Assembly (NCBI GenBank): GCA_000165345.1
Contig: CM000436.1
Location: 1,216,001 to 1,280,000, forward strand
Reading direction: 5' to 3'
Length of the DNA: 64,000 nt
In this document: in pieces, positions 45,990-50,941 of the stretch
Numbering within the stretch: position 1 is the first letter of the stretch
How the letters are laid out: every line of letters starts with the position of its first letter
Notes under the pieces: generated by a model
Databases searched by the model: none
What the model saw: the letters and a program-made list of their open reading frames with translations, nothing else
What the model was told of the DNA's origin: nothing
Position numbers and translations under genes: made by a program

Positions 45990-46010
45990 CACGTGCATTT
46001 CCCGCCTAAA
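45990..46010. promoter_or_regulatory. CACGTG E-box adjacent to GCATTTCCCGCCTAAA (E2F-like)
   Basis: The 16-mer GCATTTCCCGCCTAAA is identical to the one at 50926-50941. About 360 bp upstream of the CBM20 gene start (minus strand). Confidence 0.4.
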
Positions 46011-46120
46011 GTAAATAGTGATCTAAATTAACTTCTTAATTAAATATAAAATAGAAACAAAAAACGTCAAGTCCCGAACCTAAATTACTTTAACAATCAA
46101 TTTGAGTAAATGATTATTTT

Positions 46121-46154
46121 AAAAAAAAAAAAAAAAAAAAAAAAAAAAAAAAAA
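46121..46154. repeat. Poly(A) tract, A34
   Basis: 34 consecutive A in the long spacer upstream of the alveolin gene. Confidence 0.95.
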
Positions 46155-47160
46155 GCCGTAGAAAACCGGAAAAACGAATTAAACTGTATGAGACCCCATT
46201 TTAGTTGTGTTGTAAAACTATTTATTGTTGGGATAATACCAAAATAAAAAGTTTCGGTAAAGACTCATTCTCAATGAATTTTACCAAAAATTGGAGGCAA
46301 AATTATGCATGCAAAAATCACAAAAAATTTTTTTATTTTCAAAAAGTTTATATTTAAATAACTATTAAAAATAAAAATATGCATGCACATTCTTTTAATC
46401 TCTACATGCAAAACTACTTTATTATTTCATGAATCACATTTAATGTTGATTCAACATCTATTTGAATGCGCGCACATATATTTCATCAGTTAATATTAAA
46501 TAGGGTATTATATTAATTAGTACGGAAGTGATACAATTTTTCCCAAAAAAAAAAAATGAATGAAATTTTTCTCGTTTAATTTGTTTTATATTTATTAGAA
46601 ACTATTTTCTTGCACTTTTACAGTTAAATAATCATATTAATTTACATTTTTTCTCACCATTGATTCAATTGCCCATGTACTAATTCTTGTAAATCTAATA
46701 TTTGATCGTTGCCGCCAATTTACATAACGTCTCGTCTCCAGGATTGTGTGTACTATTGAGAAAAAAAAAGCTAATATTATAGAATACATGTAAAAAGCAA
46801 AGGAGTAAATATAAAATAGGGAGAGAGTGGTTAAATATATAATATATATTTATATACATATAGATATATATCTATATATACCAATAAATAATTTTGAGAA
46901 AAATAAAAAGGTAAAGGTTGCATGATTGGACAAGAATAAGAAATTGAGAAGAGTTTAAAGTCATTAAGGGGCAGACACTTTAAGAATTTGAATTTTAAGA
47001 ACACAAGATTATAGGCAGATCAATAGAGTTAGTACAGTAATTTAGTACAGATTAGCTGGAAAATTTGATAGATCTTGTAAGAAAACAATTAATAGAGCAT
47101 TGATATCAACAATTATTATCATTTTAGCTGATCTAATAAATTTAGAAAAAAATAATAAAG

Positions 47161-48135
47161 ATGCAACAGCCACAACAACCAAATGATATGTTCCATACAT
47201 CAGTAGGAGATGGAGTAACAGCAACTTGGGTAGATCCCGCACAAATGGGACAGGTAAATAATAATTGCTTCCCAAATCAAGCGCATCCATCATCAGGATA
47301 TTATCGATTGGAAGTAGACCAAGCTCCACTCATTACAGTTCCTGTAGTACAGGAGATTCAAAGAAGAGATAAAATTATTGAGGTACCTCAAACAATTATT
47401 AAAGATAAGATCTTACCAAAGATTTATCATCAGGAAGTTATTCATGAAGTTCCAAAGCTTGAAGTTGAGGTACAAGAGAAGGAGGTTGAGGTTCCAAATG
47501 TAACTGTAGTAGAAAAGGTGGTTGATTTAGAACATATTGTTGGATTCAATCCAAAGTACGTACCAACCTGGGAAGTTAGGGAAGTACCAAAACTCGTTCC
47601 AAAATTTGTTGGTGAACAAAAAGTCCTTTATATTGAAATTTCTCAAATTCAATATGTTGATAAAGTAACTGAAAAAGAGGTTGTCGTAGATGTTGTTGAT
47701 AAGGTAGTTCCAAAAGTTGTCGAAATTGAAGAGCCAATAGAAGTTATCCGATATAAATGGAAGGAAGTTTATGATGATATACCAGTTGTTAAATATGTAC
47801 CCAAGTTTGATGTTGAGGTTGTATGCCCTGCTCCAGTTATTGTGCCTTATGTGCAGCCAGAAATTAAGGATCTACCACCAGTTAAAGTTACAGTTGGCCC
47901 AGATGGTAGAGAAACCAATATGGCTCAGGATTACAATATACCAAATAATGTAGTTTCTTCACCAAATTCTATCCCAAATATGAATGCTAACTTAGCTCAA
48001 ATTAATGATATCAATAGCTCTCCCTTCCCATTACCAGAAGGAAGCCAACCAGTTGAGCCAAGAATGCCACAATTCATGAAAGGAAATATGCCAGTAAATG
48101 TTAGAGTAATGCCCCCACATCCAAATAATCAATAG
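47161..48135 (+). CDS. Alveolin-repeat (inner membrane complex / subpellicular network) protein
   Basis: Core is iterated valine/proline/charged repeats EVPQ, EVPKLEVEVQEKEVEVPNVTVVEKVVD, EVREVPKLVPKFV, VVDKVVPKVVEIEEPIEVIRY, VVKYVPKFDVEVV. This is the alveolin repeat signature (EKIVEVP / EVVRYVEVP type) diagnostic of alveolates. Flanks are Q/N/P-rich. Confidence 0.65.
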   Translation: MQQPQQPNDMFHTSVGDGVTATWVDPAQMGQVNNNCFPNQAHPSSGYYRLEVDQAPLITVPVVQEIQRRDKIIEVPQTIIKDKILPKIYHQEVIHEVPKLEVEVQEKEVEVPNVTVVEKVVDLEHIVGFNPKYVPTWEVREVPKLVPKFVGEQKVLYIEISQIQYVDKVTEKEVVVDVVDKVVPKVVEIEEPIEVIRYKWKEVYDDIPVVKYVPKFDVEVVCPAPVIVPYVQPEIKDLPPVKVTVGPDGRETNMAQDYNIPNNVVSSPNSIPNMNANLAQINDINSSPFPLPEGSQPVEPRMPQFMKGNMPVNVRVMPPHPNNQ

Positions 48136-48418
48136 AGTTGAATTATTTAAGAATGTTTTCATTGTGAATAAAAGTATGGTATTGTAGCTAAGAAACATTA
48201 TTTGTATTTTTTTTCAATGAAAGCACTTTTATTAAATATATCGTTGCTAACAATTGATCTTATTATATCATTTTGCTATCCAAAAAATAGCAAAGGCAAA
48301 AAATCATAGTAATGGAAAAAATAATGATTTAGTATCACCAATCAAATTTTTTTTCAATAAATATCAAATATATTTCCTTAAATAACTAATAATACTAATA
48401 ATCAATAATTGCTTATTT

Positions 48419-48739
48419 TTATTCTTGCAGTTTTTCTGATATTTTTGTTTCAAAATACTTTATCCATGTTTCTGGAACTTGCGAATACAAAAATCCCTCG
48501 ATAGTTTCGTAGAAATTTGAATCTTCCTTTTCTAAAATCCGGAAACCATTTTGGCTTATTTCTAAACTTACAATCTTTTTTTCATTAAATTTGCTAAAAT
48601 TATCCTTATTCTGCTGAAGTCCCAACGTAGCCTTTGCAATTATTTTATCTTTATAACTATTATCAATTTCTGACAAGGTCAATATATCCCCAAAATTGTT
48701 CTCAATATGTTTAACTATTTCTTCTAAAGCTGCAACCAT
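48419..48739 (-). CDS. GSKIP-domain (DUF727 / CLU-N-like) small protein
   Basis: 106-codon ORF. ..KKIVSLEISQNGFRILEKEDSNFYETIEGFLYSQVPETWIKYFETKISEKL parallels the GSKIP core (..[57 protein letters not shown]). Confidence 0.4.
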   Translation of the reverse strand: MVAALEEIVKHIENNFGDILTLSEIDNSYKDKIIAKATLGLQQNKDNFSKFNEKKIVSLEISQNGFRILEKEDSNFYETIEGFLYSQVPETWIKYFETKISEKLQE

Positions 48740-49550
48740 TTGCCATAAGAAATTTTATCCCTTAATAAAAGTACTTACAAGGCTTTGATTTAACTTTCAA
48801 AATTGTTAATTTCTCTATTACTTTATTTGACTCGTTCCCCACAAAGATGTAATGTAAAATATAGCATAAACTCTTAGCCCGCTCAGTTATTTTTTATACT
48901 TTAACCATTTTTATAAATTAACTATGAAATTGAAAACTTATCAAAGGCAGATATTTTATTCAAACCTTCTGTGATATTGTCTTTTATATTTTATTCTATA
49001 ATTTTTTTTGGCTTATTTAATTAAAATATTAGAACAATAGAATATATTTTTTTCTTATTAATCTCGCAGTTAATTCCTTCCAGCAATTATTCTTCTTCTA
49101 TTCTCTTCTTTATACCTTGATTTATTTCAATTTTAGAATGATTATTTACAAGATAAAAACCTGTGCACTAAAAACTTATCTTTTTTTTTGCTTGTCATTT
49201 ACTAGCAATTTATAATCATCCTTAAATGCATGCACCAATATTTCAACCGCCCTAGAATAATTACCCCATTTTTTTTATTTGCATGTGGATTTATGCCGGT
49301 ACTAGTCAAATTGGCACTGACGTGTCAACAAAAATTGCATGCAAAAAAAATTTGGGGAGAGGGGAGATGAATAAAAAGCAGTGCTAAAACATTAAAATTA
49401 TAAAAAAAAAATTGACTTTGAAATAGAAGTGTAATTGAAAACATATTATTGGGCAAAGTTGGTCAATTATAAAATCTTGGAAGAAACAAAAGAAAGGAAT
49501 TCTTCTTGAATTAATTAATTTGAATTTGAATTTATAATGAAAGTTTGAAT

Positions 49551-50636
49551 ATGGAAGAAAAAATTTCAATTACAAAATATTTACCATTCATTGTAAGTAA
49601 TAATATCCCAATCATACATTTTGAAATAATAATATCAAAAACTAATTCTGCTCTACTTAGTTTGTTTTATTCTTAACGGCAATACTTTACTTTATATACT
49701 TTGCAGTAAGTTTTTTCGTTAAAAACAAACCAAATATTTACAACTAATTAATACCTAACCAGTTCCACTTATTACCATTACTTCAAATTGGAATTTCCAA
49801 AGCATTTAGAGTTGAATCAAAATTTCAAGAAGGTAAGTTAAAGGGTACCAAAATATTTATATGGTACTAAGAAATCGTACATTATAATTCAATAACTTTA
49901 GGTGTTAGAGATTTTATCATTATAAACTTTTTGTTTGCACTATACAAAATCTCATTATTCAAATCTTTCTTTACAGATGCAGGTAGAGTTCCTGTAACTG
50001 AAGAATGGAGAAATACTCCAGATCCAAAATTAATATTTGAAAGAAAAGATGATGGAAGATTAAGATTCTGCAAATATGAATTAGTATATAAACCAGACAG
50101 AGCTCATTATTGTCGCCAGTTAAATAGAAATGTACTAAGAATGGATCATTATTGCCCATGGTTTGGAAATTGTATTGGATATTTCAACTATAAATTCTTC
50201 TTTCTTGCTCTTCTTTATGGATGTGCCTCACTTACGTACATGATGTTTAGTCAAATTAACACTTTGAGCAATATTTGGAGTGATAAAAATGTAACCTTTG
50301 GCCACTTATATCTTGTTTCGCTGGGAATCTGTTTCAGCGCAGTGCTACTCATTATAGTAGTTCCCTTCTTCTTATTTCACGCATATATTACCTCAAGAAA
50401 TGAAACAACAATCGAATTTTGCGAAAAAAGAAGTAAAGAAAAGGTAAGTTTTTACTTCATTTTAATAATCAACCTTTATTGTGCATTATAATTAGGGATT
50501 TACATATGATCAAGGAATATATAAAAATATCCAAAGTGTATTTGGCGAAAATCCGTTTTTATGGCTTGTTCCAGTCGGTTTGCCACCATCAGATGGGCTT
50601 TTCTTCCCAATAAAAAAAATTGAAAAGGAAGTATAA
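49551..50636 (+). CDS. DHHC-family palmitoyltransferase (DHYC variant), 5 exons
   Basis: Exons: 49551-49592 (MEEKISITKYLPFI); 49661-49705 (FVLFLTAILYFIYFA); 49763-49832 (FHLLPLLQIGISKAFRVESKFQE, phase 1); 49902-50443 (..FTDAGRVP..RFCKYELVYKPDRAHYCRQLNRNVLRMDHYCPWFGNCIGYFNYKFF..TM..); 50496-50636 (GFTYDQGIYKNIQSVFGENPFLWLVPVGLPPSDGLFFPIKKIEKEV, stop). All donors GTAAGT. The Cys-rich CRD with the DHYC-P-W-NC-G-N-KFF motif and the C-terminal NPxLW motif are typical of DHHC PATs. Confidence 0.8.
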
Positions 50637-50925
50637 TTTTTAAATCAAATCCCAACCACTTAGTAATGAAACATCTATTTGTAATAATTATTTAAATTCA
50701 AAGCTAATTGCTAAAACCTTTTTTATCTACGTCATCCGTAACAAAACTTCTATTTTTTTAAACATAGATTATTCAGTCTAAGAAGAGACTGACACAGTGT
50801 ATGATTTATTATTGAATACCAATAAAAAATTTGTATTTCATATATATTCGACATCTCACAATCAATTTTGAATTTTTGTTTTTTGCATGCAATACTTTCA
50901 CCCCACAGACTCGAATCTACCGCTA

Positions 50926-50941
50926 GCATTTCCCGCCTAAA
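50926..50941. promoter_or_regulatory. GCATTTCCCGCCTAAA (E2F-like) about 230 bp upstream of gene 51169
   Basis: Exact repeat of the 16-mer at 45995-46010. Confidence 0.45.

Follow-up and report, generated by a model that had tools for sequence, protein, structure and literature searches.

Two identical 16-mers in Cryptosporidium parvum promoters are very probably copies of the known E2F-like motif 4

Two promoters in a 64-kb stretch of C. parvum chromosome 8 share the exact 16-mer GCATTTCCCGCCTAAA. We conclude that the two words are very probably independent copies of the known Cryptosporidium E2F-like element (motif 4), kept by purifying selection in the promoters of cgd8_5020 and cgd8_5060. 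The exact match over all 16 letters is largely coincidence. About 12 of the identical letters make up the constrained consensus. Four more, namely the 5' G, C and A and the T that follows CCCGCC, are free of constraint and agree by chance.

Below, the window is the whole 64-kb stretch, which holds the genes cgd8_4850 to cgd8_5160. Counts were made in the window and in orthologous loci, 12 in number and each about 20 kb long.

The shared word and its copies

The 16-mer is found exactly where the original prediction had placed it, on the + strand at both positions (sites A and B in Table 1), while 0.00 copies are expected from dinucleotide shuffles. Two near-copies with two mismatches each lie on the - strand, TTATTTCCCGCCTAAA at 8482-8497 and GTATTTCCCGCCAAAA at 41188-41203. 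The 9-mer CCCGCCTAA had been reported four times; all four positions (11216, 46001, 50932 and 63650) hold it, but the window contains six copies, those at 14873 (+) and 8483 (-) having been overlooked. Shuffling predicts 0.10. The word had also been called too long and GC-rich to be chance. It is indeed far above the shuffle expectation, but a random-sequence null is the wrong one here, since the motif of which the word is a strong copy is over-represented throughout this genome.

Read on the G-strand, three of the window's ten intergenic GGCGGG sites have the exact 14-mer TTTAGGCGGGAAAT in common. All four intergenic GGCGGGAAA sites read TTTWGGCGGGAAAT, and since three of them carry the identical 14-mer, GC are the sole extra letters in the 16-mer. 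Site variants named beside TTTAGGCGGGAAAT and TTTTGGCGGGAAAT are TTTGGGCGGGAAAT and TTTGGCGCCAAA, and the form TAGGCGGGAAA can be set against TTGGCGGGAAA and TGGGCGGGAAA. The word family of the form NNNTTTCCCGCCNAAA has 256 siblings, GCATTTCCCGCCTAAA among them.

Table 1. Positions of the sites and conserved blocks in the window.
Feature	Coordinates	Strand	Remarks
Site A, GCATTTCCCGCCTAAA	45995..46010	+	E2F-like motif-4 site, exact match; G-strand TTTAGGCGGGAAAT on - strand
Site B, GCATTTCCCGCCTAAA	50926..50941	+	E2F-like motif-4 site, exact match
Conserved promoter block round site B	50884..50969	+	near-invariant columns, six-species alignment
Third copy of 14-mer TTTAGGCGGGAAAT	8482..8495	+	upstream of cgd8_4880; identical in C. 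meleagridis
T-variant TTTTGGCGGGAAAT	41188..41203	+	82 nt upstream of cgd8_4980
CCCGCCTAA, then G-box-like CATGTGGGGGG	11216..11236		~155 nt upstream of cgd8_4890 (- strand)
CCCGCCTAA, with GGCGCC site 20 nt further	63650..63675		~200 nt upstream of cgd8_5160
CCCGCCTAA within CDS of 1936-aa ORF (12615-18425)	14873..14881	+	probably not a promoter element
Further conserved block, carrying an E2F-like core of its own	46692..46752	+	~410-470 nt upstream of IMCp gene

Genes next to the sites

Exact look-ups of proteins place the window on C. parvum chromosome 8 and, together with primer sequences from the literature, gave the identities of the genes. The four genes that had been linked to the word are the nearest downstream ones: cgd8_5020, encoding a CBM20 starch-binding protein; cgd8_5060, encoding a small G/S-rich protein of 152 aa; cgd8_4890, whose 155-aa product is uncharacterised; and cgd8_5160, whose product is an apicomplexan-specific protein. 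They do not belong to a cell-cycle or DNA-replication programme. A search of the full-text literature for the gene ids found nothing.

Site A lies 360 nt upstream of cgd8_5020, whose ATG is at 45635 on the - strand; the IMCp/articulin gene cgd8_5030, for which site A is upstream as well, is 1151 nt away. Site B lies 228 nt upstream of the cgd8_5060 ATG (+ strand). The two sites have opposite orientations relative to their nearest gene. Site A is unlikely to be the IMCp promoter, as a conserved E2F-like block belonging to IMCp lies much nearer, with the core GCCGCC in C. parvum and GGCGCC in C. canis and chipmunk. The presence of this block suggests CBM20, and not IMCp, as the gene that site A serves.

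The known motif and its spread in the window

The E2F-like motif 4 of C. parvum is TTTGGCGGGAAV, with the core GGCGGG (Oberstaller, Joseph and Kissinger 2013, PMC3734150). Together with motif 3 (DTTGSCGCCH), also E2F-like, it ranks as the most over-represented upstream motif type in C. parvum, and the E2F-like motif is near-ubiquitous, being found upstream of most genes (PMC3734150). The published consensus sequences of individual expression clusters already contain TAGGCGGGC, TTAGGCGCC and TGCCGCCTAATTTTT. For cluster 65, to which cgd8_4980 belongs, the published consensus is TTCCCGCC.

Sites A and B match the 12-mer consensus of motif 4 at 11 of 12 positions, the mismatch being an A for T beside the core. 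Further, TTTCCCGC fits the E2F consensus TTTSSCGC at 45998-46005 and 50929-50936, both in promoter regions, in agreement with the proposal that the word contains an E2F site. An A/T extension of that site had been proposed as well, and the A-rich run is conserved as part of the site; what is not supported is TTTCCCGCC+TAAA as a specific composite that marks a sub-class. The full form, made up of a T-rich flank, a GC core and an A-rich flank, is the usual E2F/DP site of 12-13 bp and matches motif 4.

GGCGGG and GGCGCC cores are strongly concentrated between genes. With gene boundaries approximated from ORFs and orthologue gene calls, 20 of 24 cores fall in intergenic DNA, which makes up ~24% of the window (binomial ~1e-9), and one of the genic cores sits within tRNA-Ala. 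Most of the gene-upstream gaps that were scanned hold one of the two cores. We found no orientation rule: the G-strand points at the nearest gene in about half of the cases and away from it otherwise. The base adjoining the GGCGGG core is most often A (18/47), and at GGCGCC sites it is T in 36/44.

Conservation across Cryptosporidium

The core TTTCCCGCC is retained at sites A and B in most Cryptosporidium species with a syntenic locus, and it is invariant at both sites across six species. In a 21-kb alignment of these six species, 100% conservation is seen at five of the eight non-coding E2F-like cores; for non-coding hexamers in general the share is 4.0% (~5e-6).

In 10 Cryptosporidium species an E2F-like core lies 260-480 nt upstream of the CBM20 ATG; C. 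muris is among them, and in C. bovis and C. ryanae the site persists although synteny is broken there. At site B, TCCCGCCTAAAC is invariant in the six species and lies 224-241 nt from the ATG. The conserved block around it contains, in order, TGCATGCA (an AP2_1-type word), CCCCACAGACTCGAATCTACCGC (G-box-type CCCCAC), the E2F-like site and AAGCAATGGGGTGTAAAATTACTTGAA.

The letters outside the core behave differently. Of five non-coding sites, three show a change of the T after CCCGCC in orthologues, with the core unchanged: C. ubiquitum and C. canis have C at site A, where C. felis has A; C. meleagridis has A at the 11216 site (CCCGCCAAAACATGTGGGGGGG); and chipmunk genotype I has A at the 63650 site (GCCGCCAAA). 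In the region of site A the base beside the core varies between A, G and T among species. At site B, C. hominis has GCG and C. meleagridis CGC in place of the 5' GCA. Out of 16 positions, sites A and B agree at all 16 in C. parvum, at 15 in C. hominis, at 13 in both C. meleagridis and chipmunk, and at 12 in C. ubiquitum. The cores GGCGGG, GGCGGC and GGCGCC also stand in for one another between orthologues, namely at 46711, at 63650 and, in C. muris, at site A.

How much coincidence is needed

From base composition, the extra GC match beyond the 14-mer has a chance of ~0.09 per pair, or ~0.25 for three pairs. Under a position-independent model built on 47 GGCGGG sites, identity at 16/16 has a chance of ~4e-5 per pair, or ~0.002 for the 45 pairs in the window. 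When the 12 constrained positions are held fixed, agreement at the four free positions is a ~5% event among the four strong sites. These last two results count against a chance match, and the coincidence is therefore mild rather than trivial.

Alternative explanations

The GGCGGG element might be functional but read by something other than E2F/DP, such as a GC-box-type zinc finger or an ApiAP2 factor, or it might act mainly by excluding nucleosomes or as a start-site element. E2F/DP as the reader in Cryptosporidium is described as putative in a review, the motif stands upstream of genes of all expression classes, beyond those of the cell cycle, and the site at 42745 reads GGGCGGG, much like a GC box. 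Against this, the exact fit to TTTSSCGC with T- and A-rich flanks is typical of E2F/DP sites, and the exchange of the three cores at orthologous positions is what a single E2F-like specificity would produce. Cryptosporidium, unlike other apicomplexans, has also kept two E2F and two DP genes. Finally, sporozoite ATAC-seq peaks are dominated by E2F motifs, with peak motifs matching E2F1 and E2F6. We consider a different reader unlikely.

In the idea of the original prediction, TTTCCCGCC+TAAA, or else the whole 16-mer, would be a composite site in its own right, recognized by a specific factor or pair of factors and marking a sub-class of co-regulated genes. We regard this as quite improbable. 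The 14-mer does recur more often among the intergenic GGCGGG sites than the position-independent model predicts, and the neighbour preferences of the two core types differ as described above. However, neither the T nor the GCA is held by selection, the latter being gone at site B already in C. hominis, and the sites, of ordinary motif-4 form, point both ways relative to their genes.

Shared expression timing of the linked genes is not supported either. The available sources, the qPCR tables of Mauzy 2012, with noisy replicates, and the Oberstaller clusters, cover the set except cgd8_5060. In them cgd8_5020 and cgd8_4890 both peak at 6 h with a shoulder at 36-48 h; but the linked genes are spread over FCM clusters 118, 109 and 90, cgd8_5160 peaks at 12 h, and cgd8_4880 peaks at 2 h and 12 h. 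Further, cgd8_4980, the gene behind the T-variant, likewise has its peak at 6 h, a time shared by many unrelated genes. Within the reach of these sources the profiles look unrelated, an outcome that the original prediction had named as refuting it.

Origin of the word from a dispersed repeat or mobile element, which had been named as another outcome that would refute the prediction, can be dismissed almost completely: the likeness does stretch to 28 nt at 82% (23/28), with 7/12 matches immediately upstream of the 16-mer (empirical p 0.044), but the flanks are at background identity (left 32/100 and right 24/100 against 29.9 +/- 4.8), each site aligns with its own orthologous position in other species, the repeat search gave no longer family over the sites, and Rfam gave no match there. 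A structured RNA was rejected as well, Rfam giving only two tRNAs in the window.

Proposed mode of action

Under the preferred reading, that both 16-mers are copies of motif 4, the element would take the form TTT-D-GGCGGG-AAA, with one copy per promoter region. We infer that the site is bound by a heterodimer of E2F and DP, in which E2F would read the TTTCCCGC half, and that the bound site may help to open or activate the promoter in either orientation. The neighbouring G-box and TGCATGCA elements would act together with it. The reported E2F genes are cgd1_1560 and cgd6_1430 and the DP genes cgd7_3650 and cgd8_1850; none of the four lies within the window.

The element is already known, having been published as the dominant promoter motif in C. 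parvum, and the match carries little weight as a discovery. What is added are cross-species footprints that put these particular sites under selection, the freedom of the base adjoining the GGCGGG core to vary, and a compact conserved promoter of cgd8_5060, in which TGCATGCA, the G-box, the E2F site and a G-rich word are held within ~90 nt. In transgenic parasites it could be used as a small promoter for testing E2F function.

A more speculative and unlikely idea is that one of the pairs which the two E2F and two DP proteins can form prefers asymmetric GGCGGG sites, with a tight optimum TTT-A-GGCGGG-AAAT and the T-tract one base further out than in palindromic GGCGCC sites, and that the two motif types define partly separate regulons. 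If true, the excess of identical 14-mers in the window would be a trace of that optimum.

Comparison with known systems

The sites resemble the published motif 4 (PMC3734150) in organism, core, T- and A-rich flanks and location upstream of genes, as well as in their use of either orientation and their co-occurrence with G-box and TGCATGCA motifs. They differ in having an A, not a T, directly 5' of GGCGGG on the G-strand. Over the ~250 kb examined this position is degenerate (A, T or G), and the A is a small refinement, not a different element.

Compared with the canonical eukaryotic E2F/DP site TTTSSCGC (for example TTTCCCGCC / TTTGGCGGG in Arabidopsis), TTTCCCGC is an exact match, and both have a CG core of 6 bp flanked by T- and A-rich runs; a structure of E2F4-DP2 on DNA is cited in PMC3734150. 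In contrast to the canonical site, the C. parvum motif is near-universal in promoters and not confined to genes of the cell cycle or DNA replication. Further, Rb-family partners are reported absent in C. parvum, where binding is a prediction.

Motif 3, palindromic TGGCGCCA, shares promoter positions with the GGCGGG type, and the two replace each other between orthologues. The core of motif 3 is palindromic, with an adjacent T in most half-sites, whereas the 16-mer sites are of the asymmetric GGCGGG type, with the T-tract one base further out than in GGCGCC sites.

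Identity and number of the repeated words

The word repeated in this window is an E2F-like promoter motif of C. parvum that has already been published. A search of the window confirmed both exact copies of the 16-mer GCATTTCCCGCCTAAA, here called site A (CBM20 gene cgd8_5020) and site B (cgd8_5060), and also returned two copies with 2 mismatches; the expectation from dinucleotide-preserving shuffles is zero. For the 9-mer CCCGCCTAA, 6 copies are observed against 0.10 expected: the four positions in the original prediction are all among them, but the copy number is six. The G+C content per 2 kb is about 22-40%, and counts so far above the shuffles in an AT-rich window show that the word is real and non-random.

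Features in the window. Genes were assigned to ORFs by protein look-ups and primer sequences from the Mauzy 2012 supplement.
Feature	Position	Strand	Fuzzy cluster (Oberstaller)	Expression peak (Mauzy qPCR)
16-mer, site A	45995-46010	+		
16-mer, site B	50926-50941	+		
16-mer, 2 mismatches	8482-8497	-		
16-mer, 2 mismatches (T-variant, upstream of cgd8_4980)	41188-41203	-		
Identical 14-mer	8482-8495, 45997-46010, 50928-50941			
9-mer	8483 (-), 11216, 14873, 46001, 50932, 63650			
cgd8_5020 (CBM20)	45159-45635	-	118 (membership 0.54)	6 h, again 36-48 h
cgd8_5060	51169-51627	+	not included	
cgd8_4890, with intron	10402 to ~11061	-	109	6 h, very low abundance
cgd8_4880	ORF from 8959	+		2 h, 12 h
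cgd8_5160	from 63866	+	90	12 h
cgd8_4980				6 h
cgd8_5030 (IMCp/articulin)				12 h, sharp
Intron-containing gene, Clat_adaptor_s domain	11334-12084	-		
cgd8_5050 (DHHC palmitoyltransferase)	~49400-50630			
Conserved block, cgd8_5060 promoter	50884-50969			
Conserved block, cgd8_5030	46692-46752			
Palindrome CCCGCGCGCGGG	12231-12242			
E2F-like site TTTTGGCGGGCTAT	core 52283	-		
Gap between cgd8_5080 and cgd8_5070	52216-52380			
tRNA-Gln(CTG)	40293-40365			
tRNA-Ala(TGC)	57849-57922			
Run of ~34 A	46121-46154			
(TA)n microsatellite	~8225-8300			

The G-rich strand of both 16-mers is TTTAGGCGGGAAATGC. The full GGCGGGAAA is found at 4 intergenic sites, all of which read TTTWGGCGGGAAAT, and three of them share an identical 14-mer. 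As this 14-mer is already present three times, the 16-mer contributes only GC beyond it; the probability that some pair among the three shares two further letters is about 0.25, calculated from base composition. In a position-independent model built from 47 GGCGGG sites, 16/16 identity has a probability of about 4e-5 per pair and 0.002 for the window, while among the four strong sites, given 12 constrained positions, the 4 remaining letters agree with a probability of about 5%. The identity of the 16-mers is thus a mild coincidence; that three of ten sites carry an identical 14-mer may point to a narrow optimum for the site.

Distribution and flanks of E2F-like cores

The window has 13 copies of GGCGGG, and 14 positions match the palindromic SGCGCS core. 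Using approximate gene models (ORFs plus orthologue gene calls), which leave 15.3 kb (24%) intergenic, 10 of 13 GGCGGG and 10 of 11 GGCGCC cores are intergenic; 20 of 24 cores within this fraction has a binomial probability of about 1e-9. Most gene-upstream gaps scanned contain a core, typically 30-480 nt from the ATG. Orientation relative to the nearest gene is mixed across the ten sites: the strand showing GGCGGG is sense to cgd8_5020 at site A and antisense to cgd8_5060 at site B.

In the 47 GGCGGG sites, which were pooled from six species and are not fully independent, the core is preceded by TTT and one degenerate base (A 18, T 14, G 12, C 3) and followed by AAA and often a T. The A/T extension of the original prediction thus truly belongs to the site and is conserved, but its T sits at the one degenerate position. 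Of 44 GGCGCC sites, 36 have T next to the core. When the two types are compared (window plus loci L001, L005, L008, L009 and L011), the T-tract lies one base further from the core in the GGCGGG type, in a small, partly non-independent sample; TT is invariant at -3/-2 in all 10 intergenic GGCGGG sites of the window and -1 is degenerate. From the E2F/DP structure cited in PMC3734150, a single properly phased TTTSSCGC half, here TTTCCCGC, may suffice, with the partner side being less specific, which would agree with the degeneracy of the T position.

Some other elements can be observed. A genic GGCGGG at 57912 lies inside tRNA-Ala(TGC) and is not a promoter site, and tRNA-Gln(CTG) accounts for a fully conserved GC-rich block just past the 1667-aa ORF. 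The perfect 12-bp GC palindrome, between the divergent AP-sigma gene and a 1936-aa ORF, is a third type of E2F-like core in a bidirectional promoter. The site TTTTGGCGGGCTAT lies in a gap of about 165 nt between the same-strand genes cgd8_5080 and cgd8_5070 (Sedlin), which are annotated as a single merged gene in C. ubiquitum and chipmunk; the pair is a candidate dicistron with an internal E2F motif, a type described in a 2025 preprint.

Conservation across species

The syntenic locus was taken from C. hominis, C. meleagridis, C. ubiquitum, C. canis, chipmunk genotype I, C. felis, C. bovis, C. ryanae and C. muris. At site A, TTTCCCGCC is invariant in C. parvum and the first five of these. C. 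parvum, C. hominis, C. meleagridis and chipmunk carry T immediately after it; in C. ubiquitum and C. canis this base is C, and C. felis has A. The equivalents are GGCGGGAAA in C. bovis, GGCGGA in C. ryanae and GGCGCC in C. muris. The distance to the CBM20 ATG downstream is 260-480 nt in every case, even in C. bovis and C. ryanae, where another gene is the neighbour, and this ties site A to CBM20.

At site B, six species have an unchanged TCCCGCCTAAAC at 224-241 nt from the ATG. The 5' GCA is not kept: C. hominis has GCG, C. meleagridis CGC, chipmunk TTG and C. ubiquitum TGT. Only C. parvum has complete agreement between sites A and B (16/16); C. hominis has 15/16, C. meleagridis and chipmunk 13/16, and C. 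ubiquitum 12/16. Of the other copies, 11216 has T to A in C. meleagridis, 63650 is GCCGCCAAA in chipmunk, and the copy at 8486 is identical in C. meleagridis. In a 21-kb six-species alignment, 5 of 8 E2F-like non-coding cores are fully conserved, against 4.0% of non-coding hexamers (about 5e-6); the remaining three show C. canis differences, or GCCGCC/GGCGCC exchange in C. canis and chipmunk.

Site B is part of the compact cgd8_5060 promoter, about 90 nt long, in which TGCATGCA, CCCCAC, the E2F-like site and GGGGTG are conserved in six species. The IMCp/articulin gene cgd8_5030 has its own strongly conserved E2F-like block, about 60 nt, nearly invariant in six species (AATCTAATATTT...TGCCGCCAATTTACATAACGTCTCGTCTCC.GGATTGTGTGTA) and about 410-470 nt upstream, which is probably its core promoter or transcript start. 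The A run in the CBM20-IMCp intergenic region is about 9 A in C. hominis and few or none in other species; the long (TA)n microsatellite upstream of cgd8_4880 is absent in C. meleagridis.

Linked genes and their expression

Four ORF products have exact C. parvum protein matches: the CBM20 protein EAK89630, the 152-aa Q5CV82, the articulin/IMCp protein and a MAPKK annotated NPK2. The Clat_adaptor_s domain belongs to the intron-containing neighbour and not to the gene at 10402-10743, which is uncharacterised (155 aa) in newer annotations. The cgd8_5060 protein (152 aa, G/S/M-rich) has the C-terminal sequence KKKRSGCC, in which a double cysteine follows a basic stretch; cgd8_5050 lies directly upstream, an order conserved in 8 of 10 species examined (exceptions C. 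bovis and C. ryanae).

It had been proposed that a composite site, an E2F half-site plus TAAA, perhaps marks a sub-class of co-regulated genes. The three identical 14-mers leave the only room for this idea, which we consider improbable: the T after the core is at a degenerate position and varies in orthologues, and cgd8_5020, cgd8_4890 and cgd8_5160 fall in different fuzzy clusters. No TAAA-specific timing is seen in the Oberstaller clusters and Mauzy qPCR, which are noisy and lack cgd8_5060, and the T-variant carrier cgd8_4980 also peaks at 6 h; the sub-class is unsupported. A dispersed repeat element, which the original prediction had raised against itself, is refuted, since flank identity between sites A and B (left 32/100, right 24/100) is at the level of random intergenic pairs (29.9 +/- 4.8). 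Directly upstream of the word 7/12 letters match (empirical p = 0.044), and a search for repeats lengthens the shared stretch to no more than 28 nt at 82%.

Comparison with published E2F-like motifs

The reading of the word as an E2F site was right, judged by its match to the published C. parvum motif. Upstream of C. parvum genes, the strongest over-representation was reported for two E2F-like motifs (Oberstaller et al. 2013, PMC3734150): motif 3, DTTGSCGCCH, and motif 4, TTTGGCGGGAAV, with core GGCGGG. Per-cluster consensus forms with A adjoining the core include TAGGCGGGC, TTAGGCGCC, TAGGCGGCAAAT and TGCCGCCTAATTTTT (Oberstaller 2013). Further, E2F motifs are dominant in sporozoite ATAC-seq peaks (2025 preprint), and C. 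parvum has two E2F and two DP proteins as putative binders (2025 review). The typical E2F/DP site has T- and A-rich flanks around a 6-bp CG core, and in plants the classical E2F site is TTTCCCGCC/TTTGGCGGG (PMC3734150).
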